From positions 96,001-160,000 of IMG/VR virus record IMGVR_UViG_3300042868_005761: a stretch of DNA of 64,000 bases; one strand, written 5' to 3'. Below the pieces are notes generated by a model. It did no database searches. It saw only the letters and a list, made by a program, of their open reading frames with translations, and was not told the DNA's origin. Source of the stretch: a virus. Each line of letters begins with the position of its first letter. The stretch's first letter is position 1. Shown here in pieces: positions 15,654-63,439 of this stretch. The position numbers were made by a program, and so were the translations under genes.

Positions 15654-16229
15654 TTAAAACCCGGGAATCTTTGTATTGTTTAGCATTGCTGAGAAGATTT
15701 GAATAGCATTACCAGACCTATTCTTGTTTTGTGTATACGACCATTGCTCTGGAGAGATCTCTCCTCCATTACCAAATCTAGAATCTGAAATTATAGTAGC
15801 CGTGCCAGATAGAAAGGTTGTAGGATGGAATGTATATTCAATAACAGGTTGAATTCTTTCTATTGTCTGCTTTGATCCAAAGCTAGTAAACAATTCTTGA
15901 GGAGTAGAAGTCAAGAGAAATACTGTAGGATTTTCAGTTCTAGAGTTGTTTTCAAGTATATTATTCCACTCAACATCTAGAATTTCTCCATATGCAGCAT
16001 TTTTATTTCCGCTTTTATCTCTACCTTGTATTAGGCTAACTCTAAAGTCAATATAAACGTTATTGCCAATAAGCTGAGTACCTGAAGGCAAAATATCACC
16101 TGGAAAGAATATTGATTTAATATAACCTTTAGCGCTTATAAGACTATGTAACCCAGGACTACCTACTGACTGATGGTCAAAAGATTTGTTTAACTTATAG
16201 CCAATATTTGTCTTTGGTACTTTTGGCAT
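15654..16229 (-). CDS. Putative baseplate spike/OB-fold protein (191 aa)
   Basis: Immediately downstream of the hub gene (TAATG overlap), where spike genes normally lie; function inferred from position only. Confidence 0.4.
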   Translation of the reverse strand: MPKVPKTNIGYKLNKSFDHQSVGSPGLHSLISAKGYIKSIFFPGDILPSGTQLIGNNVYIDFRVSLIQGRDKSGNKNAAYGEILDVEWNNILENNSRTENPTVFLLTSTPQELFTSFGSKQTIERIQPVIEYTFHPTTFLSGTATIISDSRFGNGGEISPEQWSYTQNKNRSGNAIQIFSAMLNNTKIPGF

Positions 16230-36707: not shown

Positions 36708-39700
36708 TTACATAAACGGATTAAGAGTATTGTACTCGTTAAATGTTAAGCTGACAAAGTCTTGGTTTCTATTAGGTCCCTGGATATTATAACTATTTAC
36801 ACCATATGAGCTATATATCTTTGCCGCATTAGCCATTCCATTCAAACCATTTCTAGCGCTTAGGTTATTTAGATCTTGCATTGCCTTCTCGTCTATGTAT
36901 GGCTTTCTTGGCATATATGACGCACGACTTGGATAAATACCAAAATCATGGTAGTTCATGCCTTCGCTTTCAATATACTTTAACTTAACATCTTCTAAGT
37001 CTACTGCAGGATTAAATCCAATCCAGTCAACAGCTGGCATAGATCTATGATTAAAGAACTGAGATACTTCTTGTAGTTTTGCGCTATCTACCATCTGAGG
37101 ATCAGAAACATCAAATCCTTCTTTCTGTTTTTTAACAATAAGATCTGCTGCGTAATCCATACCATAGGTAGACATAGGAGCTGATCCAGCTGCGCGGTTA
37201 ATTGCTTCAAGATCTTGATTCATGTAGAACCCTTCCATTAGCCTTGACTTGTAATCTGGCAAAGCATCAATAATATCTTGTTGTCTACCAGGATTCATTT
37301 CTCTTGCAAATCCTGCAGCAAACATAGACTCTCTACCGCCTAGAACATTCCCTAGTCTTTCTTCCGAGACATATCCTGTTCCTCCTACATAGGTATCTTG
37401 CGCAATGTTTTGATACTGATTAGCTAACTGTTCATTGCCTTGCATTCCTGCTGCTTGTGAAAGTCCTGAATACTTAACATATTTGAGTTTATCAAAGTAC
37501 TCTTCTGTGTCTCTTTTTTCTCTTAGGCCAGGAGATTCAAAGTCAAATCCTAACCAATTATGTAATGCTGATTTAATAGCAGGGGCTATCCATCCTGCAA
37601 CAGGACTATCCCATCCTTTCATTTCTGTTCCGTAAAGTTCTCTTGATTCATATTCTTCAAGAGCATCTCGGAATGGTAATAGCTTGTTAACAGGAGACAT
37701 ACCAAACATACCAATATGCTCTATTGGCTGTGCAACCCTATTTGCAATATGAGTTGTAGCTTCCCATGCTCTACCAAACATCTTGCCAATGGGATTAGTC
37801 ATTGCATAATCTGCAATAGGCGAATCATCCTTTGCAAATCTACCTTCTTCTCTTATGTCTTTATTTACATTAAAGCCATTATTTCTAACAGCACCCATAA
37901 CTACGCCTCTCTCGTCAACGGCCTGACCAATACTTGCGGCAACATCAACAGTAACGCCTTGTCCTACTTGAATCTTGCTAGAGAAAGCTTTCTCGTTTCT
38001 AGTCTTAAGCTTTGCTGCTTGTTTGATTGATAAGTTGTAATCGCTAATTAAAGCATCAACGTCATTAGATATTCCTGCTACACCAAATCGACCACCATAG
38101 CCAGACACAGTAAAACTCATAGTAGATGCATCTACTGACGTAACATCACCACTGATAGTATCGTAAGTGCTTGGCTTGAACTGATAAGCGTCAGTGCCCT
38201 TATCGGTTGCCTTTCTTGCTACGTTCTGTTTATGCCTATAAAAGAACTTTTCCTCTTCTGTAGTCATTTCTCCTGAAGATCTCATAAGTTCAGCTTGACG
38301 CCGATATCCTTTATACTGGGGAGACTGAGGAGCAACGTCTCCTAGGATATTCATTTTATGTAGTAAAGGATAGTCTTCGGGATTGACGCCTTTTAATTCC
38401 GTATGCAAGGCAACATATCCTTTGCCCGGCATTCTGTACTCACCTTCACCATACCTAGTATTAGTGTATTGGTTTCCATATTGGAAGCTATCTGGCATCC
38501 AACTAGGCATAGCATTTTTAATTGGATTGTATTGCTTTAAGTCATCCTTGTGAAGGAATCGACGAATAGGCTCTGAGACAAAGGGAACACCCAAGAATGA
38601 ACCACCACCTTGTAGGTCATAGAATCTGCTAGCCATATCCATGTTACGAGAGAACGACTCTAACTCTTGTCTTTGGTCAGCAATGCCCGGTGTTCCTGTA
38701 AGATAGTTCTTTGCGGTTTTTGCATAGAAACCAACAAGACCACCTAGAGAAGTTGTCTGCTCCCAGAAGTCTCCTAATACTCTACTTGGAGAATAAGGAG
38801 AATAAGGTGCAGGCATTCCTAATCCACCAATACTTAAATCTGGAATCTCATCAAGCCCAGTAGATCTTTCTACAAACTTTACGTTACCTTCAGAGTCTGA
38901 ACGAGCCCATTCTCCAACATGCATTAGTCTTGGCTTTTTGATAAGGTCAGCGATCGGTTGGATAAGCGGGTATATAAAAGGAACTTGATCAAAGGCAGCT
39001 CCAGTTATAGGGGCAGGTCTGGTCCAATAGTTTTCTCTTTCAAGTTTATAAGTAAAGTTCTTAAGTGCCATTTCCATTAACGGACCATGTCCACCGGACG
39101 CGCCCGCCTGTGCAGCTCCAGAACTTAAGCGCGCAGTAAGGCTTGGACGATAATACAGAATATCAGTTCCTTCATATCCTGTCTGGCCCATTTCCCATTT
39201 CTGACCACGTCTAACAGCCTCTAATCTTTTGCCTTGATTTAGCTCTCTAAGCTCAGAGGGACGCTCAAGGGTACCCATACTACCCGTTCCTACAAACCAT
39301 GCCGCAGCAGCCACTGTAGAGGCATACAGAATGCTTCTAGTTCTAGGCGCAACACGGATGGCTTCTCTTAGTCTTCCAAGAGCATTCTTTTCACTTGCAA
39401 AGATTTTGCTTTTTGCTTCTGCGTATGTGTGATCAGTAACATGTTCAGCTATCTCGTCAAAGTTAGAAACATCTGCAACCTTGCCTATTGGATTGTTTAA
39501 TAGTCCGTATTCTCCTTCCCTTTCGAGAGAAGAAATATAAGAATTCATATTCTGTTCTACAATCTCAGTTTGTCTAGTTGATAGTCCTCCAGTATCACCT
39601 CTTATCTTTCTTATAGTAGAATCTAAAGTCCTTCTGGCTCTTATTTTTTCTTTGTCAGAAAGTTTAGGATAAGCATCTTCATGTGCTTTGGTTGCTCTAA

Positions 39701-41603
39701 GAACTCTACCGGCTTGTTCTCTTACTTCATTTCCCATGTCTGCAAGAGTAATGTTTTCTCTGTCTCTAAATTTAGCTCTTAAAAACTTTGCTCTTTCTTC
39801 CTGTTCTACGATAACATCCTTAGATAGTCCTCCAATCTTTAGATTGTCAGAGATTCTAATACCTCTAGTAGCAGCAACATAACTAGCTCCAGCTAAGAAT
39901 CCTACGCCCAATGAAGATATAACTCCAGTAGAGCCAGGCATCATTTCTTCAACATTGCGTCGCCAAGCGTTAACAGGAAGAACCTCTCCTACATAACTTC
40001 TAATCTCATTGCCTCTTGCTACAAGATTAGCAACTCCTGGTATTGGACCAGCTGCAAACGGACCAACTCCAGCCATACCTAAGACACCTAAGGCTGCACC
40101 CATTCCTGCGCCAACTAGTGTTCTTCTTTGCGAGTTGTCTGTAATTTGCATTGCCATCTTTTTAAAGACAGGAGCAAATCCTAAATCATCAGATAGAACT
40201 TCTGGAACTTTCTTTCCTAGATAAGCACCTAAGACGGTTAAGCCAACTGTTTGTAATCCACCTGATACTCCAGCAGTAACAGGATCTCCATTCATCATAT
40301 TCCAACCAAGCTGATTAACTGTAGCTAGAGTGAAAGCTACCTTAGCAGCCATTCCTGCGTATCTAACAAGCATTGCTGCTCCATGCCCATGATCTATTCT
40401 TGGAGCAAGATTATTCTTAGATAGGAAATTGTAAATCTTTTGCTTTGGGGCTGGAGATATATACTCAAAGAAATCACCTACCTGATTATATAGTTCTGAG
40501 AATAGTCTTGAAGTTCTTTGTAATGCCATAGAACCGTAAGCTTCAGTAAGCAAAGCTGTAGTTGCATATCGTCTTAAATTAGTTCCCTTGAAAAGACCAA
40601 GATCAGCAAGTGAAGTTCCTGCTCCATTTTTACCAGGTAGAAATTTAATTCTAGTCAAATTCTGCATTCGACCTATCATACGAGTTAACTCTGGATCCAT
40701 ATTATTTTCTGCCAAAAGAACATAACCTTCTTTGCCACCAATGCCTTCTGCAAAGGTTGCTCCTGTCTTTTTGTTCTTGAGACCAAGCGAAGGTTCGACT
40801 ACTCCAAGTAAAGCTTCTGTAAATAAACCTTTGTCTACTAGTCTTGCTGCTTTTTTATTCAAACTCTGCTTAGGTCCTGCTGCTGCGACTACCTCTCCAT
40901 ACATGTTTAATCTGCCAGCAAAAACATCCCCATCTTCAAATATTAAATAATCTAATAGTTCTAATTTTTTCCTATTCATCCTCAATTGTTTAGCATATAA
41001 ATCTAATGTCCTAGATCTATTGGTTGCACCAAGCGCATTCATACTTACGTTGAGAACTGTCTTTCCTTTCCTTTTTGTAGTATAGGATAAGACATCACTC
41101 ATATAAGTAGCTTTTGCAAATAACTTAACAACGTTATCAAATATAGGCAGATCTAAACCGCTCTGTTCTACTTTCTTAATACCAGCATACCAAAAGCTTT
41201 GCGGGTCATCAGATGAAGTAATATTCATTAACTCTTGGCTTGCTCTGAAAGTAACAGCTCTTAGAGTTTTCATAGCTTCTTTACCAGTCTTTAAATTAAA
41301 GACATCGCTGACTTTATTGACATGGCTAAAACTTCCAGACAACTGCCATGACTGGAACTTGGTACTCCTAGAGAGTTCACCTGCTCCACGTATTGCGCTT
41401 GGTCCCATAAAGAAAACAAGGCCACCGGCTGCGCTTTTCATTGCAAGATCTAATGCTTGATCAGCAACAGTAATTTCTTGCCCGGCATTCCCTGAGCCTT
41501 CTGCCCATGTTTGCTTATCTTCAGAATACTGTGATCTTTCCACTGATTGGCTAAGATCATGGTATTGAGCAAGTTGTTCTGCAATTACATTAGGTAGAGC
41601 CAT
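36708..41603 (-). CDS. Tape-measure-like / ejected membrane-channel protein with degenerate SNase-like domain (1631 aa)
   Basis: Follows the tail chaperones (canonical TMP position); several Gly/Ala-rich hydrophobic segments at aa ~415-780; OB-fold SNase-like pattern near nt 37840-38170. Confidence 0.6.
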   Translation of the reverse strand: MALPNVIAEQLAQYHDLSQSVERSQYSEDKQTWAEGSGNAGQEITVADQALDLAMKSAAGGLVFFMGPSAIRGAGELSRSTKFQSWQLSGSFSHVNKVSDVFNLKTGKEAMKTLRAVTFRASQELMNITSSDDPQSFWYAGIKKVEQSGLDLPIFDNVVKLFAKATYMSDVLSYTTKRKGKTVLNVSMNALGATNRSRTLDLYAKQLRMNRKKLELLDYLIFEDGDVFAGRLNMYGEVVAAAGPKQSLNKKAARLVDKGLFTEALLGVVEPSLGLKNKKTGATFAEGIGGKEGYVLLAENNMDPELTRMIGRMQNLTRIKFLPGKNGAGTSLADLGLFKGTNLRRYATTALLTEAYGSMALQRTSRLFSELYNQVGDFFEYISPAPKQKIYNFLSKNNLAPRIDHGHGAAMLVRYAGMAAKVAFTLATVNQLGWNMMNGDPVTAGVSGGLQTVGLTVLGAYLGKKVPEVLSDDLGFAPVFKKMAMQITDNSQRRTLVGAGMGAALGVLGMAGVGPFAAGPIPGVANLVARGNEIRSYVGEVLPVNAWRRNVEEMMPGSTGVISSLGVGFLAGASYVAATRGIRISDNLKIGGLSKDVIVEQEERAKFLRAKFRDRENITLADMGNEVREQAGRVLRATKAHEDAYPKLSDKEKIRARRTLDSTIRKIRGDTGGLSTRQTEIVEQNMNSYISSLEREGEYGLLNNPIGKVADVSNFDEIAEHVTDHTYAEAKSKIFASEKNALGRLREAIRVAPRTRSILYASTVAAAAWFVGTGSMGTLERPSELRELNQGKRLEAVRRGQKWEMGQTGYEGTDILYYRPSLTARLSSGAAQAGASGGHGPLMEMALKNFTYKLERENYWTRPAPITGAAFDQVPFIYPLIQPIADLIKKPRLMHVGEWARSDSEGNVKFVERSTGLDEIPDLSIGGLGMPAPYSPYSPSRVLGDFWEQTTSLGGLVGFYAKTAKNYLTGTPGIADQRQELESFSRNMDMASRFYDLQGGGSFLGVPFVSEPIRRFLHKDDLKQYNPIKNAMPSWMPDSFQYGNQYTNTRYGEGEYRMPGKGYVALHTELKGVNPEDYPLLHKMNILGDVAPQSPQYKGYRRQAELMRSSGEMTTEEEKFFYRHKQNVARKATDKGTDAYQFKPSTYDTISGDVTSVDASTMSFTVSGYGGRFGVAGISNDVDALISDYNLSIKQAAKLKTRNEKAFSSKIQVGQGVTVDVAASIGQAVDERGVVMGAVRNNGFNVNKDIREEGRFAKDDSPIADYAMTNPIGKMFGRAWEATTHIANRVAQPIEHIGMFGMSPVNKLLPFRDALEEYESRELYGTEMKGWDSPVAGWIAPAIKSALHNWLGFDFESPGLREKRDTEEYFDKLKYVKYSGLSQAAGMQGNEQLANQYQNIAQDTYVGGTGYVSEERLGNVLGGRESMFAAGFAREMNPGRQQDIIDALPDYKSRLMEGFYMNQDLEAINRAAGSAPMSTYGMDYAADLIVKKQKEGFDVSDPQMVDSAKLQEVSQFFNHRSMPAVDWIGFNPAVDLEDVKLKYIESEGMNYHDFGIYPSRASYMPRKPYIDEKAMQDLNNLSARNGLNGMANAAKIYSSYGVNSYNIQGPNRNQDFVSLTFNEYNTLNPFM

Positions 41604-45844: not shown

Positions 45845-48800
45845 TTACTGTGCGCTTAAGTTGACTGAGAAGGTAATCTGGCGAAGCTCAAATACCGGAG
45901 TAATTGTAAGCTTCACTTTCATCTTACCAAGAACACGGTCTGAAGCGCTTTGCTCAATCTTGAACGAAGCACTAGTAACCGTCTGGATAGGCTCACCAGC
46001 AATGTTATCCTTAAGGACTTCACCAATGGCGGATTCAAGAGCAGCTCTCATGGGCGCGGAAAGACCCTTGCCAATGAAAGGACGAGTCGCAACTCTCAAC
46101 TGATCAACTAGTCTTGAGATGATTCTGACCGTTGTAAGTCTTGTGTAGTCAGAGGTTGGTGATGCGAATGTCGGTGAGTCAGCAATTGAAGCAGAGACAC
46201 CATTAGGCTCGCTCTTAGCCATAACAAGACCAAGACCGCAACCAGCATCAATAACCTTAGTCTCAGTTCTGTAGTCGATGGTAAGCTGTGAAAGCTTCTC
46301 ATTGATTAGTGAGTTGGCAACTGAGATAGTAGGAAGAAGACCAGCAACCATTGTTGCGGCATTCAGGATATAGTTAGGACGACGAGGATTCAAGTCGTCT
46401 GTTGTTCTACCAAAGAAGGCAACAACGCTGACGTACTTGCCAAGATCAACCTTTCTTTGATTCTCATCTAGGACAAGGTTGGCTTCAGCGTAATCGATTA
46501 GACCATCCTTTGTAAGGAATAGACCACCATGCTTAAGGCCGTTGTTGAAGGTAGTATGACCACCAACAAACTTATGACCAAGAAGACCAGCACCATTCTC
46601 TGTCACATAGTAAGCATTCTCTTCTCCGTCAAAGACGTAAGAAGGAGCGCTACCGTAGTAAGCTCTAATAGCACGAGGATTGAGCCCACTGGGAAGAGTT
46701 GTTCCGATTACGCCATGAACAAACTTGTAATCGCTTGAGTTCTCATGGCAGTACTTGGCTAGAAGATGAGCAAAGTTTACCTCAGTGTAAAGTAGAGCAG
46801 GAGAAGCATCCCCAGGAACACCCGCACTTGCAATCTTAGGAGCAATTGAGTCATCTGACCAGTAGTAGGTGTAGGTATAGTCGCCATTATTAACAGTGGC
46901 AAGGTAACCAAGAGCGTCCTTTGATGATCCAGGAACTGGGTAAGAGCTATCAGTCCATGTAGTCTCAAGGCCATCTGCAATATTAGGACTATTTAGATGG
47001 ACAGAAAGAGGAACAATAAAATCAAAAGCAGCAAGATCAAGATCTTCGAAAGCAGTGTGGATCTTCTCGTATCTCTTTATGAGGGATAGGCTTTGACCCG
47101 TGTCACCAAGATCATAAACAACTTGGCTGCTACCAAGACCATTGGCAGCTAGATAAGCTGATGAGCCCATTTGGTAGAAAGCAGAGCCACGAAGACCATA
47201 AGAACTAACTCCCCCACCGTCTTTCACTTTCGATAGGGGGATGTAGACACCACCCTGGACAGAAGAGAAAGCTCTGTCAAGCGACAGAGGATAAAGGCCA
47301 ATATCACGGCTAACACGATGGGAAACAGACTCACCACTGATTGTTATGCCCGCACCAGTCATAGTAATAGGAGCACTAACAAAAGGTCTAGCTGCAAAAC
47401 CTGCCCAAGGATGCTCAGACGGATACACAAGCACGCCTGATGTATCATGCGTAAGGCCATTTGGTGTAAAGGTAATTTCTGGACCAACACGAGTAATGTC
47501 AAAGATATTATCTAGGGGAGAGTCTTGGAAACTTTCCTGAATCAAATCGGCAACATTGGACGCCGTTAAGGGCTGTGCTGCGCGAGTTCCCGTAACACTC
47601 ACAGTGCTAATTAAACCAAGAGCATTTACACTTGTAACTGTAAGAACAAGATTATGGTCAGGGGCTGTACCACCTAGTGCAGTTCCTGGGATAGTAAGCG
47701 TGCTTGGAGTGACACCAGCCTTAAACGGCTTGTGGACAAATCGTGTACCTGAAACAATAAAGTCAGTAACTGTGCCACCGTCGCCAACATTCACTCCAGT
47801 TACAGTAAGCGCAAGATTGTTGGCGCTTGTGCCACCAAGTTCTGTGCCCTTCCAGACAAGCACGTCACCAACTTTATAGTTTGCGCCTGCATCAGCAACT
47901 GAAACCTGTGAAACTGTATAAGCACCTGATGTCGCATAGTTAATCGTAACAGCAATTTCAAGACCAGTTCCGTCAACTTCCTCGTCAACTCTATCAACAA
48001 AACTTTCAGAAAAAGTATCAGTGCCAGCAAGAAGTTCATCGTAAATAATTACTTCATCTGAGGCAGCTGAGCCACCATCTACAACATTAACCTGAGCAGC
48101 AGTATATGCACCTGTTGCACTTCCTGTTGGGAGTGTAACTGTAAACTTTGGCATGTCACGGAAGTACCATGCGGTGCCTGCAGGCTGATTGATTTCAGTA
48201 CCAGAAGTTGCAGAAACTTCTGTGTACTCAGTTGATGAAAGATCGCCTGTGACAGTCACACCAGAAACTGTAACCGAATACTCACCGCCGGTATAACTAC
48301 CGCCGACTGAAACACCAAGCTTCAAAGTCTCTAGGGCGTCAGAGTCTGCTGCAGAACCAATTCCAAGATCAACATCTGACATATCAAAGCTAACATCAAC
48401 TTCACCGTTATCGGAAGTAGCGCCATCAAAGGCATTACCCATCCAGACAATAGCATCAGTCGTAAGATTGACGACAACAAGTTGAGCTACAACGCGGCTT
48501 TTATCTGCAACTTCTCCAGCACCATCACTTGAGTAAAGTTCAGCATGCTTATATGCGACAGCATAATTTGAAGCTGCCTCTGGAGACTGCTGAATTGGGG
48601 TAATCTTAATACCAGCAGGCGCACCAAAAGCATCAGCGCCAATGGCAGAGACAGAAGGAGCAGTGCCAGGAAGACGATATAGGTAAATGTTTGTACCACC
48701 GCCTTTCTTGACTTCGGAAGCACCGCGAGTTAGCTCGGATGTCGCACCAAATTCACGAACGACAGAAGCAATATCAGTCACTTGATAGGGCTCACTTGTT

Positions 48801-48916
48801 AAACCTTTGCTAGCCGTACCAATTACTAGAACAGACTGACTAGTATTTGCCGAAATCTGGCCGAGGTTTCCGTCCTGAAGCTCTACATAACTACCAGGTA
48901 AATTTACATATGGCAT
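45845..48916 (-). CDS. Tail sheath protein with large insertion domains (1023 aa)
   Basis: N-terminal 'LPGSYVELQDG...VLVIGTASKG...P...FG', C-terminal 'LTTVRI...FIGK...GKMKVKLTITPVFELRQI' are classical contractile-sheath motifs. Confidence 0.9.
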   Translation of the reverse strand: MPYVNLPGSYVELQDGNLGQISANTSQSVLVIGTASKGLTSEPYQVTDIASVVREFGATSELTRGASEVKKGGGTNIYLYRLPGTAPSVSAIGADAFGAPAGIKITPIQQSPEAASNYAVAYKHAELYSSDGAGEVADKSRVVAQLVVVNLTTDAIVWMGNAFDGATSDNGEVDVSFDMSDVDLGIGSAADSDALETLKLGVSVGGSYTGGEYSVTVSGVTVTGDLSSTEYTEVSATSGTEINQPAGTAWYFRDMPKFTVTLPTGSATGAYTAAQVNVVDGGSAASDEVIIYDELLAGTDTFSESFVDRVDEEVDGTGLEIAVTINYATSGAYTVSQVSVADAGANYKVGDVLVWKGTELGGTSANNLALTVTGVNVGDGGTVTDFIVSGTRFVHKPFKAGVTPSTLTIPGTALGGTAPDHNLVLTVTSVNALGLISTVSVTGTRAAQPLTASNVADLIQESFQDSPLDNIFDITRVGPEITFTPNGLTHDTSGVLVYPSEHPWAGFAARPFVSAPITMTGAGITISGESVSHRVSRDIGLYPLSLDRAFSSVQGGVYIPLSKVKDGGGVSSYGLRGSAFYQMGSSAYLAANGLGSSQVVYDLGDTGQSLSLIKRYEKIHTAFEDLDLAAFDFIVPLSVHLNSPNIADGLETTWTDSSYPVPGSSKDALGYLATVNNGDYTYTYYWSDDSIAPKIASAGVPGDASPALLYTEVNFAHLLAKYCHENSSDYKFVHGVIGTTLPSGLNPRAIRAYYGSAPSYVFDGEENAYYVTENGAGLLGHKFVGGHTTFNNGLKHGGLFLTKDGLIDYAEANLVLDENQRKVDLGKYVSVVAFFGRTTDDLNPRRPNYILNAATMVAGLLPTISVANSLINEKLSQLTIDYRTETKVIDAGCGLGLVMAKSEPNGVSASIADSPTFASPTSDYTRLTTVRIISRLVDQLRVATRPFIGKGLSAPMRAALESAIGEVLKDNIAGEPIQTVTSASFKIEQSASDRVLGKMKVKLTITPVFELRQITFSVNLSAQ

Positions 48917-52762: not shown

Positions 52763-54049
52763 TTAGTCAGGGAACTGAGTGCTAACCGGAGAAGCACCAG
52801 GCACCGCTGCAAGGAACTCGCCATCCGTAATATTGTAGTAAGGACGCGCAATCTCAGGAGCGTAGAAGTTCTGATCGCAGAAGATATTCTTAAGCGTAAC
52901 AAGACCCTGACCTTCGTTGTACATGAAAAGACCCCACTTCTCTGACCACTTCATCTTGAAGGTCTCGAAATACTTATCCTCCCACTCATCAGCAACAATA
53001 CCTGAACCAACGATTAGAGCACCAAGTGACTTGCTATCGCAAAGAACGATATCGGTAAGCTTAGTAGCAGGATCGTAAGGCATGAAGCGTGAGGTCACAA
53101 TGCGGAGACCGAACGGAAGGCCAAGGGGAAGCTGGGGAGCCGCCGTAATAGCATTGACGTTGAAGTCCTTAAGCGAGGCCTTGGAGCTATCGGCACCAGT
53201 ACCAAGCTGGCCGCGTGAATAACCCTTTGAAAGAACACCCTTAACGGCGTCAGGAACACCGCTAACGTTAGCGGCTGAACCCGAGTAGCTACCAAAGAGA
53301 TTGCCGCTGCCGCTCTGCATTGCAAATGCACGAAGGACGGGGTCGCGAACAAACATAAGGTAAGTAAGAGGATGGCAGATTAGCGTATCAGGCGTAAAAC
53401 CTCTCTGAATGAGAAGGTGATAAGCGTTGAAAAGATCATCCATGGTAAGAGTACCATTGGTCTTCATCTTGATGTCACGACCAGTCGTGATGCCAAGAGC
53501 TGACTGAGTAGGATTAAGATTGTCAAACGCAGGAACGCTGATGTTCGTGATATGCTTAGCGATTTCGGTCTCCTTGCGGCGAGCGAAAGCACGACCAGCC
53601 TCACGGGCAAGGTAACCAAGGAGATTCCAGTTGGAAGCCTTGATAGCCTCTTGCGTAAGGGAGATCATAACACCCCACTTGTCGATGGCGGCCGTAGCCA
53701 TACCACCGCCAGTTGTCACACGCTCTTCACGGTAGCCTTCAAGCTCAGTGACCTTATGGACAGTGAAAGCTGAAAGGGCGGGAAGGCGGAACTCAGTGAT
53801 ACCATCCGGTGCAGGAATGGTGTCAAGGAGTGGAGTTAGCGTGAGCATAGGCTCCATGGGCTCCATCATAATCTCAACAATTGAGTGCTTGACCCAGGGC
53901 CCAAGCTCAGCTGATGTAATCGCGTCTTCGATTGAAAGACGTGAATCGCTGCTATGGTCTGAGCCAGGAAGCCAACCGTTGTTCTTGATGAGCGCTGTAA
54001 GCTCACTCTGATCAGCAATTTCTAGGTTCTTATGCTTTAGTCTTGACAT
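52763..54049 (-). CDS. Major capsid protein, HK97-fold (428 aa)
   Basis: 'VTELEGYRE...IDKWGVMISLTQEAIKASNWNLL...AGRAFARRKE' and 'PDTLICHP' are HK97-type MCP patterns; strongly biased codon usage, AAGGAG SD and a downstream terminator. Confidence 0.9.
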   Translation of the reverse strand: MSRLKHKNLEIADQSELTALIKNNGWLPGSDHSSDSRLSIEDAITSAELGPWVKHSIVEIMMEPMEPMLTLTPLLDTIPAPDGITEFRLPALSAFTVHKVTELEGYREERVTTGGGMATAAIDKWGVMISLTQEAIKASNWNLLGYLAREAGRAFARRKETEIAKHITNISVPAFDNLNPTQSALGITTGRDIKMKTNGTLTMDDLFNAYHLLIQRGFTPDTLICHPLTYLMFVRDPVLRAFAMQSGSGNLFGSYSGSAANVSGVPDAVKGVLSKGYSRGQLGTGADSSKASLKDFNVNAITAAPQLPLGLPFGLRIVTSRFMPYDPATKLTDIVLCDSKSLGALIVGSGIVADEWEDKYFETFKMKWSEKWGLFMYNEGQGLVTLKNIFCDQNFYAPEIARPYYNITDGEFLAAVPGASPVSTQFPD

Positions 54050-55691: not shown

Positions 55692-56540
55692 TTAGACTTT
55701 CACATCTAGTGGGTTAAACTTTCCTGAAATAAAGCCAGAACGCACTTGTTGAACAAGATAGTTCTCAGCTTTATTTATATCATGATTTCGTAATTCTTTG
55801 TATTTACTAGCTACTCTAAGTTCTACAGATGTCCAGTATTCTGGTGTAGTATCTATTGCGTCTTCAATAGTATTCACATCAAGCTTCTTACCAAGCTCCT
55901 TAGGCTCAGCAGAATCTTCAATAATAATCTCTTCTGACTCTGAACTATCGGCAGCCTCAGTTGTCGCTTCTTCTGAACTATCGGCAACTTCAGTTGTCGC
56001 TTCTTCGGCCGAATCCATTGGGCCACTCATTTCTTCTTCAATTTCCTCACCGGGAGATTCACTTGGAATTTCCATGCCAGCAGTCTGAAGAGAAGAGCCA
56101 AGTTGCCATTGCCACTTTTGATGCATATCAATGCGCTCAGCTACAAAGTTTGCAATACCTTGCTCATTAGCAGAGTTAGCCATGTCAAAGACATTCTTAA
56201 GCATAGCAATCATCACTACATTCTTCTTGTACATATCAAGAGCAAGTTCACTTGCCTCAGTGGTCATAGAGTCATCTTTAATTGATGCAGTCTCGACCAT
56301 GTAAGTAAGAGAGTGAGGAAATGAACCAAGCTTGCGGATATTCTCAGCAAGTGGATCTACTGAACTAGAGTAGATGTCATCATAGATATTCCCAAATAGC
56401 TCATGATACTGGGCAAAGTCAGGGCCAGCCACATTCCAATGTGCACGATGTGCAGTAGAGTACATAGCAATTACATTACTAAGTAAGCCCTTAAGAGCAT
56501 CAGCTACTTGAGCTGGGCTAGTTGTCATTTCAGTTTCCAT
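55692..56540 (-). CDS. dps: Dps/ferritin-like protein with acidic, scaffold-like C-terminal extension (282 aa)
   Basis: 'HWNVAGPDFAQYHELF...VDPLAENIRKLG...HQKWQWQL' is the Dps signature, with both His and D-x3-E ferroxidase ligands; GGAGG SD. Confidence 0.85.
   Translation of the reverse strand: METEMTTSPAQVADALKGLLSNVIAMYSTAHRAHWNVAGPDFAQYHELFGNIYDDIYSSSVDPLAENIRKLGSFPHSLTYMVETASIKDDSMTTEASELALDMYKKNVVMIAMLKNVFDMANSANEQGIANFVAERIDMHQKWQWQLGSSLQTAGMEIPSESPGEEIEEEMSGPMDSAEEATTEVADSSEEATTEAADSSESEEIIIEDSAEPKELGKKLDVNTIEDAIDTTPEYWTSVELRVASKYKELRNHDINKAENYLVQQVRSGFISGKFNPLDVKV
55939..56006. repeat. 33-bp tandem duplication encoding EEATTE(V/A)ADSS x2
   Basis: tctgaactatcggcagcctcagttgtcgcttct followed by tctgaactatcggcaacttcagttgtcgcttct (2 mismatches). 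Confidence 0.9.
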
Positions 56541-56607: not shown

Positions 56608-59022
56608 TTAGCCACCTATACCAGGAGAAGGATACGCGCCAAGGGGAGGAGTCTCTTTCTTACTCCAGACAATAGGAGCCATAATCTTTCTTAGTTCAGA
56701 CCTCTTCTTGACAGTTACTTCTTCAGTCTTGTCATATAAGCCATCCTCACCCATCTTAGCAATAGTAAGAATAGTAGCAGGATCTTCCTCTGATGCATCT
56801 ACACTTAAACCAGGACCATGAGTAACAGTTCCTTTGCTATGCATAGCATCAATGACTCCATATCCTTCTTTCATTTCAGCTGCGTCGTCTTGCTCACCAA
56901 GTGAACCTGAACTAACACCAACTTCATTACCCTTGCTATCAAGGCGATAGGAAACAAAGTCACCTACAGCAAAAGTTGGCGTTGACGGAGTTGTATAAGT
57001 TTTCTCAGGAGTATAAGTATCTTCGACTGAAGACTTAAAACTTTCCTCAATGGCAGTCTCAACAACTGGCTCATTGTAAACAAAGTCACCCATAACCCAA
57101 GGACCCTTAACTGAATCTTCAGTTCTCATACGTTCAATTTGTGCAGCTTTGGCATTTGCCCAGCTCTTGCCGCCATCACCACCCCAAAGATCCCAAGCAA
57201 TACGACCAGGAGAGGGAAAGCCTTCTTCGCCTTGGTTGAAGCCAGAAGCCTTCTTGTCAACCTCATGACGTGCAAAGAAACTCTTCATACGCATAACGGT
57301 AGAAGGAGAAAGCTCTTTCTTGTTCATAATGTCTCTAGCGCGAGCTACTCCAACGCCGGTACCACCGCGCTTGAACTCTGCACGCCACTCAAGGGCACGC
57401 TTAGCAGCTGAAGCCATACCAGGTGTTGGAACAAATCCCTCAGCGGCATCATCAATAGTAATAGTTTTTACCATCTCAGAAAACATTTCAGCCGACATAT
57501 CGTCAGCTAACTCCAGATTGAAATTACTAACTAGTAACTTCTTGATAGAGTCTAATAGTGATTGGCTATCAAGCTCAAACTTTGCAAGCTTCTCGTCTGC
57601 GATAGCTTTGCCAGATCGTAGTTCTTCAAGCTCTGCAATTACCTCAGGAGCAGGAATAGATTTTAATTTAATGTATTCGTCAACAATTGAAAGAATTTCT
57701 TTCTTATTGTCTTCTGATAGTACGGTGGGCATTTCTTGCTCCTCTTGATTAATTAAGTTAGTTTGGTCTTCCATAGGCTCTGTTTTGTTTGCAGAAACTA
57801 ATCCATCTGGGATAACAGCAAATCTGCAGTAACCATCAGGCTCTATAGTTTGGGAAATAATTTTACAACGATTTTCGCTAGCATGAAGAGCGCAGTTGCC
57901 GCACTTAACGCCAATACTGAGATTCTCATTCTCTGGGCCACTTTCATAGCCAACCCAAATACCAGGAGCCTTATCAAGAGGTCCAACTTTATTAGCAAGA
58001 GTCATCAGTGAGTCAGCTAGAGCCTTTTCCTCTTCTGAGAGTTGACTGTAAAGATCAACATAATCGTCTGCTATTTCGACTGGCACTGTCGCAACAGGAC
58101 CATTGTCAAAGCTAGCCATAATCTCTGAGTCGCTAATATCAGTAACCGCATTCTTAAAGCAATCGGTGACAACCATAGTAGTCTTGAAGTTATCTAGGTA
58201 TTGCTGAAGAGCGTCGCCGCCAACCTCTTTGTAATTCATTACTCGTGCATGAACATCAGCAGGATGTGTAACGTAAGCATAGCCACGATAGCGAAGACCG
58301 CTTGGGACGCCATAGGCTTTGGTCCCATCAATATCGTCGCCAATGTCCCATTCCATCTCATCAGTCTTGTAAGACTTACCGCTAATAGAATCGTAAAGAT
58401 CATTAGGAGTCATTTCAACACTAACTGTAAGATAGCGCCCATCAAGAGTTTTCTCTACAGCCTCTGGATCTGTAACAAGTCCCTTGACAAGTACCCATCC
58501 AAGGCCCTCAAAATCCTCATCGGTCATCATTCCAGACTTGGCAAGCTTCTTCATATAGGGAGCCATAGCAACGTCAGGAGCCTTAAGTATAAGGCCATCC
58601 TTGATCATTGTAGAACTAACATTATAAGCAGCCTTAGGGTTGTCTACCCAAGTCCCACCCATGGCACGACCAACTGCACCAACCTCTCTATTCTCAATTT
58701 TCTTACCATCAACAATAGCAACTTCCTTATGCATAGGTTTAATAGGAATATTGTATGGACTAGTAAGTGTAGGAATTGCATCTTTTAAATCAGATGGCAT
58801 ATAGATAAGGTTATTCTGAGTAGGTCTCATACCGTGAGTAACCTTTGTAAGAGTTACTAGACCAACCTTGTTCTCTGCCACGCCATCACTAATAAAGTAT
58901 TTAAAATCAAGAAAGTGTGGGCTCTTCTTATCCCAAACTTCATGGGTAAAATCGCCCTTAATACTATTAACAAAATAGTCCTGAACAATACCTTCTTGTA
59001 ATAGTCTCTTACTTATCTTCAT
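56608..59022 (-). CDS. Multidomain prohead protease (804 aa) with HiPIP-like Cys4 domain, coiled coil and two further C-terminal domains
   Basis: N-terminal 'NNLIY...PIKPMH...AVGR...TDPEAVEKTLDGRYLTVSV...AYVTHPAD' fits a caudoviral prohead protease; lies between portal and MCP. Confidence 0.75.
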   Translation of the reverse strand: MKISKRLLQEGIVQDYFVNSIKGDFTHEVWDKKSPHFLDFKYFISDGVAENKVGLVTLTKVTHGMRPTQNNLIYMPSDLKDAIPTLTSPYNIPIKPMHKEVAIVDGKKIENREVGAVGRAMGGTWVDNPKAAYNVSSTMIKDGLILKAPDVAMAPYMKKLAKSGMMTDEDFEGLGWVLVKGLVTDPEAVEKTLDGRYLTVSVEMTPNDLYDSISGKSYKTDEMEWDIGDDIDGTKAYGVPSGLRYRGYAYVTHPADVHARVMNYKEVGGDALQQYLDNFKTTMVVTDCFKNAVTDISDSEIMASFDNGPVATVPVEIADDYVDLYSQLSEEEKALADSLMTLANKVGPLDKAPGIWVGYESGPENENLSIGVKCGNCALHASENRCKIISQTIEPDGYCRFAVIPDGLVSANKTEPMEDQTNLINQEEQEMPTVLSEDNKKEILSIVDEYIKLKSIPAPEVIAELEELRSGKAIADEKLAKFELDSQSLLDSIKKLLVSNFNLELADDMSAEMFSEMVKTITIDDAAEGFVPTPGMASAAKRALEWRAEFKRGGTGVGVARARDIMNKKELSPSTVMRMKSFFARHEVDKKASGFNQGEEGFPSPGRIAWDLWGGDGGKSWANAKAAQIERMRTEDSVKGPWVMGDFVYNEPVVETAIEESFKSSVEDTYTPEKTYTTPSTPTFAVGDFVSYRLDSKGNEVGVSSGSLGEQDDAAEMKEGYGVIDAMHSKGTVTHGPGLSVDASEEDPATILTIAKMGEDGLYDKTEEVTVKKRSELRKIMAPIVWSKKETPPLGAYPSPGIGG

Positions 59023-59521
59023 TAGCCTTCCTTATAATGACTTTGCTATTAGGATGATCAGGCGGTAAATCATAATACTTACTATCTGAGATTTTTCTAT
59101 TATCTATTATAGACTGACTACTTTGATTATATACCTGGTATGATTCTTCGCCGCTATCCTTTAACGCATTGAAAACACCCCAGTTATAACTTCTCATTCT
59201 TTCTGTCTCATAGATAGTCATCATCCTATGACCAATAGTCTTAGCTGTGTCAGTTATAGTATTGCCTTGCCGATTGCGCATCTCAATATGTAACTTATCT
59301 ATAAAGAACTTCTGAACCTTCAACTGGAATTCTATGTTGCCAGTATGAGTCTCATTAGTTAAGTTAGAAGAGTCAGCATACTCAGAGTAGCCTTTTATAT
59401 AAGCCTTAATACTGTTATCTTTGAGCATAACAGAGAAACGCTCAAAAGCGGCATCAACGGTAAAATTAGGCTGAACGTCGTAGTCAGCCTTCTCCTTGAG
59501 ATGACTAACTAATCCATTCAC
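59009..59521 (-). CDS. MuF/SPP1 gp7-like minor head protein domain, probably translated as a portal extension
   Basis: 'IYETERMRSYNWG' and 'LPPDHPNSK' match the MuF motifs (I..TE..RA.N.G; PP.HPNCRC). The frame stays open upstream of the GTG as far as the A10 run at 59652-59661. Confidence 0.65.
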   Translation of the reverse strand: MNGLVSHLKEKADYDVQPNFTVDAAFERFSVMLKDNSIKAYIKGYSEYADSSNLTNETHTGNIEFQLKVQKFFIDKLHIEMRNRQGNTITDTAKTIGHRMMTIYETERMRSYNWGVFNALKDSGEESYQVYNQSSQSIIDNRKISDSKYYDLPPDHPNSKVIIRKANEDK

Positions 59522-59643
59522 ATCCTCTCGATATTCATCAAAGTCTAGGATACTGTTTGTAACTAGACTTCCTGGCCCACTTTTTGTGCCATGTTGATTT
59601 GATGGTCTAACGGCATTTGCATTAGCTTTACCGCTAGGAGACG

Positions 59644-61173
59644 CTATCGAATTTTTTTTTTAACAGCAGGTTTCTCAGAGGACTTAGTAGCCATCTTATT
59701 TTGTAATTCTCTTGCCTTGTTTAGATCAGAAGAAGACATAGGTGTTTTGTCACTTCTAGCAGAGGTTTCTGCAATAGGTGACATTGCGTTAGCTCCAAGT
59801 TTCAATAGCTCTTGGGCCTCTGTAATCATCTTGTAATAAGAGTGATCCCAGTCATCTTCCTGAGCAGCAGAAAGACCAATACGATCTCTGAGTTCATCAT
59901 GACTAATAGCACTATTCAACCAAAGTTGAATTGCTGCATTCTCTTTCTTTATTTGGTTCTCAACATCTATCTCTTTGAATCTTAAAGCAACTTTATTATC
60001 TGGGTCTAGCCAGTCAAAGCTATTCTCTTCGGTGCTTTCTTGTAAAAGAGGAACAATCAAATGAGCATAGATTTGTTCCTCGAAAACAAGCTGATCACTC
60101 TTTACTGAGTTGATAAGACTACTAGACATAGTAGCAGCGGTTGATCTGTTAGCTGTATCGCCTTCTCCAATATCAACAGTAGATAAACCAAGTGCAGCAA
60201 GAACACGCTTCTTGAAATAATCAAGGTAGCCCTCTGCTCTAAGCGAACGACCTTCTGCTCCAATCATTTTAATTTCATGACGCTCAGGGGTAACAAAGAA
60301 ACCTTCAGGAGGTTGGTTATTAATAACCTCAGTAACCATACTAATCTCATCTCTACCGTCTGGTAGAATAGTAGCAGGCATAGCGTCAGTGCCAATCTTG
60401 TACTGGACAATTGGAAAGATACTTTGGTGAAGTAGAACTTCTACATCTGTTTCAATGCGACGCAAAGCTTTGATATCTTCAATTGCTGCGCTGCATCTTG
60501 GAGTACCAACAATAAAACCTTCAAGCTTGTTAACATGAAAATGTATGATCTCACTAGGCTCATATACAGTAGTAGGACGAGTATTTTCCGTCCAGTCCTC
60601 TTCGCTGTATTGTCGATACTTTATGGGTTGTTTAAGGTCGTTGACCTTAACCTGGATCATACTGGTAGGAAGTACATGAAGTGAGCTAATTGGGGCTATC
60701 TTGCGCCCTTTAGAGTCTGTTCTAGTATAGCCACCAGATGTCTTGTCATTGCGTTTGACGAGAACAAAACAATTACTATATCTAATGATATTCTTGGCTA
60801 TGTCAGTTATGAATTGGCGAGGTGTAGTCCGGCTGACATAACAAACTTCCTTCAAACGGCGCTCTATGTACTCTACAAGATCTCGGTCTTTACCTATAAT
60901 CTCGTAACCTTCTTTCATAAATAAAGATAACTTTTTGTCAAAGCTAATTTGCAAGTAAGCTTCAATGGTGGCAATCTTGTCTATCTCTTTAAAGTCATGC
61001 TCTAGCTTTTGCCAGTCATTCATAAAGTATGGACGAGTTGTTCTATAGTTAAATACTGGATCTTTTGTTCTTTCTAAACTTGGCGCAGGTATCTTACTCT
61101 CCGCATCATCTATTGTTTGAATAGAAGATGCAAGATTCTTTAGATTAATAACTTGTGCTTTTAATTTAAACAT
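59644..61173 (-). CDS. Portal protein (509 aa)
   Basis: 'IIHFHV...FIVGTP...AIEDIKALRRIE...PIVQYKIG...YFKKRVLAALG...GEGDTANRSTA' are phage portal patterns; lies upstream of protease and MCP. Confidence 0.85.
   Translation of the reverse strand: MFKLKAQVINLKNLASSIQTIDDAESKIPAPSLERTKDPVFNYRTTRPYFMNDWQKLEHDFKEIDKIATIEAYLQISFDKKLSLFMKEGYEIIGKDRDLVEYIERRLKEVCYVSRTTPRQFITDIAKNIIRYSNCFVLVKRNDKTSGGYTRTDSKGRKIAPISSLHVLPTSMIQVKVNDLKQPIKYRQYSEEDWTENTRPTTVYEPSEIIHFHVNKLEGFIVGTPRCSAAIEDIKALRRIETDVEVLLHQSIFPIVQYKIGTDAMPATILPDGRDEISMVTEVINNQPPEGFFVTPERHEIKMIGAEGRSLRAEGYLDYFKKRVLAALGLSTVDIGEGDTANRSTAATMSSSLINSVKSDQLVFEEQIYAHLIVPLLQESTEENSFDWLDPDNKVALRFKEIDVENQIKKENAAIQLWLNSAISHDELRDRIGLSAAQEDDWDHSYYKMITEAQELLKLGANAMSPIAETSARSDKTPMSSSDLNKARELQNKMATKSSEKPAVKKKIR
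59652..59661 (-). other. A10 slippery homopolymer at the 3' end of the portal gene (candidate frameshift/slippage site)
   Basis: GTT AAA AAA AAA ATT CGA TAG in frame 0; the -1 frame runs without a stop into 59009..59521. Confidence 0.6.
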
Positions 61174-63439
61174 TGTCTACGTTTGCTCCTAATGCAACTC
61201 GTCTCCAGAAATCCAGACTTTCACCTTTGCTTATTATAGACGATTTTGCTCTATCGCAATTAGTAAGATTAAATCTACTATCAGTTGCAGGATTTATTAA
61301 GTATCTAATCGGCTTTGTCTTTTTGTTACTCTTGTTATTCCTTGCCTTTTCCTGGTAAACAGGTTGGCTATTGAAGTACTCCTTCATTGGGAAGTCACTA
61401 TTAGGATCCGGATCCCAGGGATCCCATGGGCTTTCATTTGTTAGGTTACCATTATCATCTTTCATAGGAATGCAAGGTTCAATTCCCTTAGAGGTTGCTG
61501 CTTTGTAAACTCCTAGAGCAAAAGCTAGAGTCTGAGACAAGGCCATAATCTTTGTACAGAGAACAATATTGGTATCAGCTTGAGTACCCATCAAAGCCTT
61601 CAAGGCATCAAGGCCATACTTTACAATGTCTGACTGAGAAGAAACCCAATCAATAAAGTCATATATTACAGACTTAATCATTTCGATTGAGTCAAGAGCA
61701 TCACCTTTACCAAAGAGAGGATTGGTTATTGTTGATAGGAACTTCATACCATTGTTATTCAATGCTCCTTCTAGAGCTGTCCCTACAGCTTGCTGATCTA
61801 CTCCAATCTCACCATTGCTATTGTTAAAGTATGTTTGGCTAAACTTTGTAAGTGCGCTTATTTTGCTTTCATCTGCTGTGCCTGAATTCACCCAGTTTGA
61901 GAGTTCTTCAGTTGTAAAGCCATATTGCTTACCAGCCTTATCAATATCTTGGACACTGATAAGACTATTAATAGTACACAAAGCATAGTTGGGCAAAGGG
62001 CTAATGTTTGCACGAATACTCATTTGTAAGAGATTTAGAAGAGGCTCAACAATTCCACGCAAAATAAGATCTCTTAGGAAATTTAATCCAAAGTTTGCAT
62101 TTGCAGAGAATATCTCAGACCAAGTGTAGACTAGAAGTCCACCTAGACTTGCAATAACAAATAATAACTCAAGCGGACACAAAGAGCCAAGTCGGAGAAG
62201 AGAACAGTAATTAGCTTTTAACTGAAACTCAATGTCACTGGCAAACCTTATTTTTGCAAGAAGAGCTTTCGTAATTTGTAATTGTTCTTTAAGTTTTACT
62301 TCGAGATCAATACCAAATACAAAGTCACTCCCTTTAAATATGTCCCCCGGACCTTTGATATCTCCTAACTTATTTGCAAGTTTAGTCCACTCCCCACCAA
62401 AGCAATCATAACAGCCTTCCCAGTTTGTAACTAGGTCTCCTAGGTTCTTAGCAGGTTCTCCTATAGCTCTTGCCTTGACATTTGACGGCTCTTTGCCTCT
62501 CATTAGAACGTCAATAGCGCTATTTTGCTTGTCTATGCCATTGAGGGTACTCTCTATACCATGAACGACTTCCCTAGTCTTCTGTGCCTCATTAAACAAA
62601 GGTATTAGTCCAACTTTTGCACTAATATTATCTTCACTTAGTTTTATTTCATTTTGAGCTAAAGCTGTTTCAAGTCCGAACATATCTCTAAAAATATCAA
62701 ATTCTTCATAGACTTTAAATCTTTTATCTTCTTCTAGGTTATTAAGCCAAACAGATGCCATCTTTCCAAAAGTCTTTTTAGGCTCAGGGTCATAGTCTTT
62801 CTTAACAGTTTTTTCTGCTTGATATGCATAAGCTAATTTAATTACTTCACCATACTTTGAATTAAGATCCTCTTCTTCTTCCATGCCAACCATTGGATCA
62901 TTTTTTATATCTTTTGTAGCAGACCTTAATTGATTGTCAGCTTTGAGCTCTCGGTATAGTTTTGTGTACCTTTTAAGTTCTTGCATTTCCTGATAGGTTA
63001 ACTTTCCTTTCTGGTGAGTAGGAAATAGGAAGTCTGCAAGTAAACATTGATCATGGTCTTCTTTTTCATAAGCAACGCTATAGTTTATATCTTCTAGTCT
63101 TTCTGCTGTGACTTTCAAGAAATTATCCAGGATAGCAGCTTGTCTCTTTGCTTCTTCTCTGTTCTCCTTGCGCAAGGCTTCTGCTGCAAGAGAGTCAATG
63201 TTCTTTCCCTTGCCGTTGTAAAGCTTAGTATCTAAGATTTGATTGTATTCTTTATTAGGCTCTATGCTAGAAAGAAGATCTTTAATAAGACCATTCAGTT
63301 CACTCTTAGAAAGCTTATTTACATCTTTGTTTTCTAGTCTTTCATTGTTACCATCAGGACTAAGTTCTTCTAGTGTAATATCTTGTTGTGTATTTGTTAT
63401 CGAAAAGATTTGTCTTTTCTGTAAAGGAAGTCTTTCCAT
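61166..63439 (-). CDS. Hypothetical protein (757 aa), helical with hydrophobic segments
   Basis: Long co-oriented ORF overlapping the portal start by 8 nt; hydrophobic stretch LELLFVIASLGGLLVYTW; scattered Cys. Confidence 0.75.
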   Translation of the reverse strand: MERLPLQKRQIFSITNTQQDITLEELSPDGNNERLENKDVNKLSKSELNGLIKDLLSSIEPNKEYNQILDTKLYNGKGKNIDSLAAEALRKENREEAKRQAAILDNFLKVTAERLEDINYSVAYEKEDHDQCLLADFLFPTHQKGKLTYQEMQELKRYTKLYRELKADNQLRSATKDIKNDPMVGMEEEEDLNSKYGEVIKLAYAYQAEKTVKKDYDPEPKKTFGKMASVWLNNLEEDKRFKVYEEFDIFRDMFGLETALAQNEIKLSEDNISAKVGLIPLFNEAQKTREVVHGIESTLNGIDKQNSAIDVLMRGKEPSNVKARAIGEPAKNLGDLVTNWEGCYDCFGGEWTKLANKLGDIKGPGDIFKGSDFVFGIDLEVKLKEQLQITKALLAKIRFASDIEFQLKANYCSLLRLGSLCPLELLFVIASLGGLLVYTWSEIFSANANFGLNFLRDLILRGIVEPLLNLLQMSIRANISPLPNYALCTINSLISVQDIDKAGKQYGFTTEELSNWVNSGTADESKISALTKFSQTYFNNSNGEIGVDQQAVGTALEGALNNNGMKFLSTITNPLFGKGDALDSIEMIKSVIYDFIDWVSSQSDIVKYGLDALKALMGTQADTNIVLCTKIMALSQTLAFALGVYKAATSKGIEPCIPMKDDNGNLTNESPWDPWDPDPNSDFPMKEYFNSQPVYQEKARNNKSNKKTKPIRYLINPATDSRFNLTNCDRAKSSIISKGESLDFWRRVALGANVDNV

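Follow-up and report, generated by a model that had tools for sequence, protein, structure and literature searches.

How does a phage portal gene that ends in a run of ten A's relate to the open frame that continues behind it, one base out of phase? The question is raised by a stretch of viral DNA of 64,000 nucleotides (nt), taken from the IMG/VR virus record IMGVR_UViG_3300042868_005761 (positions 96,001 to 160,000) and hereafter called the window. In it, a portal gene stops shortly after a poly-A run, while a MuF-like domain lies in the -1 frame opening at the same run. An initial annotation of this locus proposed programmed recoding, by which a minority of portal subunits would acquire the MuF-like domain. 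Our comparative analysis supports this interpretation: the frame break is conserved, selection switches frame at the run, and the domain lacks a conserved start codon of its own. Judging from sequence comparison, the portal gene and the MuF-like domain very probably make up one recoded gene, which would yield both the portal protein and a portal-MuF protein of about 721 amino acids (aa).

All genes in the region around the portal lie on the minus strand of the window. The portal open reading frame (ORF; P0001, 509 aa, 59644..61173) ends with the codons GTT AAA AAA AAA ATT CGA TAG, which gives the C-terminus V-K-K-K-I-R. Its TAG (59644..59646) lies two codons past the slip site, the A10 run at 59652..59661 (T10 on the plus strand), read as AAA AAA AAA A(TT) in frame 0. 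Read in the -1 frame, the T before the run makes up a TAA (59660..59662) with the run's first two A's, and the ORF opens exactly at the run. From there, it stays open for 216 codons (P0003) down to the TAA at 59009..59011, which overlaps the start of the next head-module gene (56608-59022, with its ATG at 59020-59022). On its way, this frame spans an apparent intergenic gap of 122 nt (59522-59643) and enters, in phase, a 170-aa ORF (59009-59521). A gene caller would start the latter at the GTG at 59519..59521, preceded at a distance of 2 nt by GAGAGG; we consider this GTG to be probably an internal valine codon. The gap and the run together correspond to a linker of 46 codons (59522..59659), read in the -1 frame only and predicted to be disordered, which contains the motif RPSNQHGTK (59582..59608; consensus RP-x-NQHGTK). 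The MuF-like (SPP1 gp7-like) domain, a predicted helical bundle with a small sheet, occupies 59012..59548 and ends with a PPDHPNS motif. A shift at the run would join 507 and 214 residues into a fusion of 721 aa with the junction ...V-K-K-K-N-S-I-A-S-P... The initial annotation had described the portal end at A10, the -1 frame open through the gap and in phase with the 170-aa ORF, the GAGAGG next to the GTG, and a fusion of about 720 aa; each of these particulars was recovered from the sequence.

To see how far this arrangement extends, we turn to its relatives. When IMG/VR was scanned with P0003, 19 loci (L003-L021) came up that are 65-100% identical to it across all 216 residues, the linker included. 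In these loci, as in the window, the portal frame stops 2 or 13 codons after the run and the domain is found in the -1 frame. The run consists of exactly ten A's in an identical phase (NNT AAA AAA AAA ATY), and 16 distinct junction sequences are represented. The codon preceding the run varies between GTT, ACT, ATT and TCT. Three deeper relatives carry the arrangement in other forms. L120 (64% portal identity) has an A9 run in the same phase as the window (CTT AAA AAA AAA GTA), while L118 (54%) and L119 (52%) share ACT CAA AAA AAA AAG with TAG or TAA as the very next codon, which makes an A10 run in another phase. All three have the MuF-like domain in the -1 frame after the run, together with a T-P-T-N-Q-H-G-type linker motif. 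The TAA that opens the -1 frame at the run is kept in all 16 junctions of the first type and in L120, and is absent from L118 and L119 with their other phase. Between lineages, the 150 nt upstream of the run have an ungapped identity of 0.26-0.37, which is the random level. What is conserved, then, across three codon contexts and down to a portal identity of 52%, is a poly-A run of 9-10 together with its -1 continuation. All 19 distinct junctions (16 close and three deeper ones, portal identity 52-100%) have A9 or A10 with the domain in the -1 frame, and the samples and assemblers behind them are many and independent (JGI, ENA, Logan, NCBI).

The run also stands out against its own genome. It is the sole homopolymer of at least 8 in the 64-kb window, where A/T runs of 7 occur seven times, those of 8 or 9 not at all and this one of 10 once. 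Nor does another A/T run of at least 9 occur in the entire genome (IMG/VR virus record, 176,231 bp, with completeness rated at 100%). Lysine codons are AAA in 52% of cases overall, so AAA and AAG are used about equally, and only one of the five KKK triplets in the large ORFs of the window is all-AAA, namely the slip site. The A10 run is thus more than chance.

Purifying selection changes frame exactly at this run. Over the last 50 portal codons, the ratio of synonymous to non-synonymous changes is 55:26 in frame 0, 3:87 in frame -1 and 21:68 in frame +1. Past the run, the picture is reversed: the synonymous fraction in the linker (codons 4-46) is 0.14 in frame 0, 0.79 in frame -1 and 0.02 in frame +1, and the corresponding values for the domain (codons 47-216) are 0.11, 0.82 and 0.05. 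When variable sites were counted over 11 distinct close sequences and the 43 linker codons after the run, 10, 4 and 33 of them fell on the first, second and third codon positions of the -1 frame. We also considered a reassignment of the stop, with TAG read as sense, and rejected it: three frame-0 stops (two TAG, one TGA) precede the GTG, and a coding-type substitution pattern is missing there.

Such evidence induces us to suggest the following scenario. Standard decoding would give the 509-aa portal, ending two codons past A10. In a fraction of expression events, a shift to the -1 frame at the run would lead through the disordered linker with RP-x-NQHGTK into the MuF-like domain, giving the portal-MuF product of ~721 aa, which would be the same protein by either the RNA-polymerase or the ribosomal route. 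Most likely, RNA polymerase slips on the T10 template, so that some of the mRNAs gain an additional A; a -1 slip of the ribosome on A_AAA_AAA (A_AAA_AAG in the deepest relatives) may add to this or take its place, and both may act. In this way, the clade would have replaced a constitutive portal-MuF fusion with a two-product split. The portal dodecamer would then presumably display just a few MuF domains towards the inside of the capsid, much as separate MuF proteins are present at low copy number. In solved structures, the C-termini of portals point into the capsid, so a small share of portal-MuF chains would bring a few of these domains into the head, at the portal. To this scenario as a whole, in which polymerase slippage on a selected A9-A10 run, derived from an ancestral fusion, sets the MuF-bearing fraction of portal subunits and produces a mixed dodecamer, we would give about even chances.

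The nearest competitor is a purely ribosomal programmed -1 frameshift, in which the P-site and A-site Lys-tRNAs move back by one base on a uniform A10 mRNA and the same product results. We regard it as possible, if rather unlikely. All three junction types have, in the right, frame-0 phase, a heptamer of the X_XXY_YYZ type. The window and L120 carry A_AAA_AAA; L118 and L119 carry the classic A_AAA_AAG with an immediate frame-0 stop. Frame-0 stops come close after the run in all of the junctions. Furthermore, L120, with its A9 run, may fold a stable hairpin from about 14 nt past the run (L120:3037-3117, -18.3 kcal/mol, z -2.76). No hairpin of this stability was seen in the others; it could be a stimulator specific to its lineage. 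Yet the junctions share neither a downstream stem-loop or pseudoknot nor an upstream Shine-Dalgarno (SD)-like element. The consensus structure of 13 junctions had an energy of -2.06 kcal/mol with no stem near the site, single-sequence folds gave z-scores from +1.5 to -2.8 with no common stem, and the 35 nt upstream of the run, where a 5' SD-like element was looked for, are not conserved. The best local hairpin of the window begins about 14 nt past the run, a larger distance than is usual for stimulators. It should be kept in mind that some known -1 frameshift sites work without stimulators, so that the lack of one merely makes this reading less likely. In addition, two or three A's beyond those of a heptamer are invariant, though they encode part of a freely varying disordered tail, the neighbouring residues vary, and AAG is a synonym as frequent as AAA.

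Three features of transcriptional realignment sites are present here: a run of about 9 or more inside a coding region, its retention among diverged homologues, and an alternative frame under purifying selection. As there is no conserved stimulator and the whole run of 9-10 A's is invariant, we moderately favour polymerase slippage over a purely ribosomal shift. Several considerations weigh against our scenario nonetheless. A_AAA_AAA, and A_AAA_AAG with its stop in L118 and L119, are good ribosomal -1 sites, so that the sequence does not tell ribosomal shifting from polymerase slippage. Slippage would also depend on the polymerase that transcribes these late genes. The existence of the two products and the ratio between them are deduced from comparative genomics only, and we likewise infer which machine slips and how efficiently, the stoichiometry in the virion, the minority share of fused subunits and the function of the MuF-like domain.

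Far less probable is that the locus contains two ordinary genes, with the MuF-like protein starting at GTG 59521 or by reinitiation after the portal stop, and with no fusion formed. In favour of such an organization, gene callers predict separate proteins of 143-179 aa in relatives, purine-rich GAGAGG lies near the GTG, and in SPP1 and Mu it is normal for the genes of portal and MuF to be separate and to overlap. The initial annotation had listed independent initiation of the 170-aa ORF among the ways in which its proposal could fail. However, the GTG is replaced by GTA in L010, L011 and L017 and is absent from the L018-L021 group. The linker of the window contains no ATG, GTG or TTG, and no start codon is conserved there among the relatives. 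GAGAGG, with its spacing of 2 nt, encodes a conserved R-E pair (within the residues Y-R-E-D), while 32 of the 33 other listed ORFs of the window start with ATG, mostly with AGGA or GGAG about 5-9 nt upstream. Taken together, the lack of a start in the linker, the non-conserved GTG and the coding role of GAGAGG imply that the linker can be reached only by ribosomes coming from the portal frame. The 43 codons before the GTG evolve under purifying selection in the -1 frame much as the domain does, and they carry a motif common to in-frame fusions. Two ordinary genes would also leave the invariant A9/A10 run unexplained.

These in-frame fusions come into view further away in the portal family. We searched the portal against 5.8 billion proteins. 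The clusters with 52-89% portal identity (n=16) are 507-520 aa long, save for two partial matches (338 and 325 aa, covering 63-66% of the query), and no in-frame relative was found among portal homologues of at least 52% identity. The next-closest relatives (48-40% identity) are all in-frame fusions of 681-739 aa; further out, long forms predominate beside a minority of 516-617 aa. Similarly, most portal relatives at 32-44% identity on IMG/VR contigs are single ORFs that extend 200-400 residues past the portal match, many of them ending with HPNC or HPNS. A search for longer proteins (379-2000 aa) containing P0003 returned none. One fused homologue, P0009, is 45% identical to the window's product in its portal part and 27% in its C-terminal part, the RP-x-NQHGTK motif included. 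In-frame relatives of this kind imply that the fusion is the older arrangement: on the evidence of sequence, a constitutive portal-MuF fusion is the ancestral state, still seen in the more distant relatives. The objection, voiced with the initial annotation, that homologues might be uninterrupted fusions therefore holds only for distant relatives (at most 48% portal identity), while all those with at least 52% are split at the poly-A run. Unless they are processed, the portals of constitutive-fusion relatives would carry twelve MuF domains each.

The linker motif RP-x-NQHGTK occurs in all of the recoded relatives and in the in-frame fusions P0009, P0012-14, P0018, L022 and L031, and may represent a processing or docking site. 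It is also present in L001, and in the Bacillus jumbo phages (phage WH1), it has the diverged form ENQHGKQ; the IMG/VR loci L023-L029 matched this linker stretch only. Short portals in distant relatives (L084, L090, L095, L098, L100-L114) were considered as further recoded cases and were rejected, having ordinary gene ends, no slip site, and a next gene with its own ATG.

Variation at the level of DNA is a still fainter prospect. According to it, replication slippage would keep a mixture of A10 genomes (portal only) and A11 genomes (fusion) in the population. Runs of 9-10 A's are indeed mutable in replication, and consensus assembly would hide a minority length variant. Yet the consensus falls on the same side in all 19 junctions with no A11 assembly seen, and a fixed low ratio per virion would be better served by slippage during expression, though mixed infections would look alike. 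Least credible of all is a homopolymer error in sequencing or assembly that conceals a true A11 and a constitutive 721-aa gene like those of the distant relatives: homopolymers are error-prone, but all 19 junctions from independent samples and assemblers are frame-broken, the -1 relation is found again with A9 and in another phase, the nearby frame-0 stops are conserved, and a close in-frame form is missing both among proteins of 379-2000 aa and among portal homologues of at least 52% identity.

What, then, is the domain that the shift would add? The MuF-like identity put forward in the initial annotation stands as regards fold and position, has a degenerate form of the motif, and falls short as regards the Pfam threshold for PF04233. 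The 216-aa product P0003 has no Pfam or PHROG match, Pfam Phage_Mu_F included. Among its distant homologues, PF04233 reaches at best E-values of 0.018-0.057, about 14.6 bits against a cut-off of 29.6. Moreover, the window's domain has lost the CxxC...CxC cysteines of typical MuF proteins. Both points weigh against our reading. At 7.8e-4, one member of the domain family matches the 'head morphogenesis' family phrog_4728. Bacillus phages WH1 and Edson have, across their entire genomes, a sole MuF match, sub-threshold and at the C-terminal end of the portal ORF, and the window's genome has no other PF04233 match.

Structure speaks more clearly. In an AlphaFold (AF2) model of P0003, built on an alignment of 17 homologues, residues 38-216 are confident, with a mean predicted local distance difference test score (pLDDT) of 80.7, while residues 1-37 have a pLDDT <50 and are predicted to be disordered. 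Fold matches in ESM-Atlas had template-modelling (TM) scores of 0.65-0.68 over 178-181 residues, with a root-mean-square deviation of 3.2-3.4 A, and belong to clusters with PF04233 in 99-100% of members. Named structure matches in BFVD are mostly minor capsid or (phage) head morphogenesis proteins (E 1e-6 to 1e-2), and a language-model search returned a PF04233 cluster at 0.94. A Foldseek search against the PDB matched no solved structure. When the domain alignment was compared by hhalign with a profile of SPP1 gp7 and Mu F, which with two sequences is too thin to be informative and counts for neither side, only the C-terminal motif was aligned, with a probability of 1%. This motif, PPDHPNS, lacks cysteines, while typical MuF proteins have PP-x-HPNC-x-C with an upstream CxxC. 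As to position, SPP1 (genes 6 and 7) and Mu (H and F) have the MuF gene immediately behind that of the portal, as with the domain here. We conclude that the domain is MuF-like by fold, position and, in degenerate form, motif, and is not a Pfam-threshold member. An 820-aa protein that matches P0003 (P0008) proved to be a false lead, being repetitive.

The fate of the cysteines is worth a separate comment. All four of those at the MuF C-terminus (C-x2-C ... H-[PD]-N-C-x-C) are kept in the distant in-frame homologues L022, L031, L001 and Bacillus WH1. The recoded clade and its nearest fused relatives have other residues in their place (HPNS, no CxxC; 59012-59120 in the window). Such a replacement suggests the loss of a metal site.

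The identity of the portal is more straightforward. In a PHROGs search, the 509-aa ORF matches phrog_9232 with an E-value of 1.7e-36 over profile positions 51-490 of 502. Its match to Pfam Phage_portal PF04860 (E 6.5e-7, 29.3 bits) is below the cut-off of 39.1, and close portal homologues carry precomputed PF04860 matches. The fused homologue P0009 (719 aa) shares 45% identity with it over 494 aa, in its N-terminal part. The homologue in Bacillus phage WH1 lies near the terminase and carries the annotation portal. In the window, a gene resembling that of a major head protein is found at 52763-54049, with tail sheath (45845-48916) and baseplate genes, among them a baseplate wedge gene (13677-14852), downstream. 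With both a family profile match and a position in the head module, the ORF is a portal gene.

The clade consists of uncultured phages of about 175 kb. The phage itself is a large myovirus, distantly related to the group of Bacillus 0305phi8-36/WH1 and Acinetobacter ME3. Its nearest isolates (Bacillus WH1, Edson and 0305phi8-36, Acinetobacter ME3 and Moorella MTATph1) have 28-34% portal identity, none of 50,697 isolate phage records exceeds 34%, and blastn of the 3-kb region against isolate phages gave no match. A portal homologue with 86% identity (P0022) is filed at NCBI under a metagenome-assembled 'Alphaproteobacteria bacterium', a possible but unreliable hint of host or binning.

Some neighbouring genes deserve mention, all of them on the minus strand. 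Upstream of the portal and overlapping it by 8 nt, a gene for a 757-aa protein (61166-63439) takes the position expected for the large terminase; this protein has no Pfam match and one marginal PHROG match. The 804-aa protein encoded at 56608-59022, the gene that overlaps the end of the MuF frame, has phrog_2859 (unknown function) as its sole match. In several distant relatives (L100, L103, L106, L109/L111, L098 and L095), a gene for a 600-790-aa protein directly follows the portal; its product, a possible homologue of the window's 804-aa protein, resembles it in the N-terminus, with a pattern of the type M-x-K-I-I-[KR]-[YF]-N-D-[FY]-[IV]-Q-I-N-P-D. The head module also encodes, at 55692-56540, a 282-aa protein with a Ferritin/Dps-like domain (Pfam PF00210, E 3e-11; phrog_3636 'DNA binding protein'). 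Finally, five very large ORFs are present at 16229-24427, 29815-36699, 36708-41603, 3844-8145 and 8162-11164 (2732, 2294, 1631, 1433 and 1000 aa), with no Pfam match at E <=1e-3.

How does this locus compare with known recoding systems? Transcriptional slippage at the A9 run of Thermus thermophilus dnaX and poly-A realignment at sites in insertion sequence (IS) elements are well established. Like the window, they have a conserved A-run of at least 9 in a coding region and products in two frames; dnaX belongs to another class of genes, and its slipped product is the shorter one. Among phage structural proteins, the lambda G/GT tail chaperones and the T7 capsid proteins 10A/10B provide a minority, C-terminally extended protein from overlapping frames at a fixed ratio. 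These depend on short heptamers and ribosomal slippage, and concern proteins other than the portal. Poly-A slippage sites have been surveyed (PMC5009743, PMC3711429), and the lambda G/GT frameshift is cited in PMC7911831 and PMC4256274. A parallel is offered by bacterial secretion-system genes, tssM1 of Citrobacter rodentium and tssM3 of Yersinia pseudotuberculosis (PMC4256274), where, as in the window, a poly-A run lies just before a premature stop in a gene for a component of a large machine. The A11 run of tssM1 causes ~20% transcriptional frameshifting, and the ratio of products matters (PMC4256274). As at our locus, tssM1 has no nearby SD-like or RNA stimulators and comes in short and full-length forms. 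The secretion-system cases are experimentally proven, whereas the evidence for the phage portal with its A9-A10 run is comparative.

Constitutive portal-MuF fusion genes have been described in the Microbacterium phage clusters EA3/EA5/EA8 and EB (PMC7302621). Together with those of the Bacillus jumbo phages WH1 and Edson and the metagenomic relatives, they share with the window the order of portal, linker and MuF-like domain, at 680-790 aa compared with 721 aa here. The fused relatives found by us in Bacillus phages and metagenomes are homologous in both parts and share the NQHG motif. In all of these, a single ORF puts MuF on every portal subunit, whereas the poly-A frame break in the window would make the fusion optional and presumably sub-stoichiometric. 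In SPP1, gp7 attaches to the portal and goes into the interior of the procapsid at low copy number (PMC6316719). SPP1 gp6/gp7 and Mu H/F resemble our locus in that MuF, with a shared fold, comes directly after the portal. There, the two are separate polypeptides joined non-covalently, while in the window, the connection would be covalent through recoding, and the cysteine motif is degenerate (HPNS versus HPNCxC).

Full-text literature searches gave no relevant report of recoding in a portal gene, and neither the GeneTack survey nor the accessible portion of the 2016 recoding review mentions 'portal'. Poly-A slippage, frameshifts in phage structural genes and constitutive portal-MuF fusions are all known, and for recoding of a portal gene, we found no earlier report. 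If true, the recoding event would be the first to be described for a portal gene, and the portal would join the short list of recoded phage structural genes, which includes tail chaperones and some capsid and tail proteins. There are also consequences for annotation. In this clade, the MuF-like domain is called as a truncated orphan ORF of 143-179 aa and the linker as intergenic. For gene callers and frameshift predictors, portal and MuF-like domain should together count as a single recoded gene. The compact, conserved site would suit tests that separate polymerase slippage from ribosomal slippage. Portal and MuF proteins are near-universal head components, and the one known way in which phages keep MuF down to a few copies on a portal of 12 subunits is the non-covalent binding in SPP1. 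A slippage site that splits an ancestral fusion would thus be a new genetic way of setting the ratio of MuF to portal, and the clade would offer a natural experiment on the control of MuF copy number.

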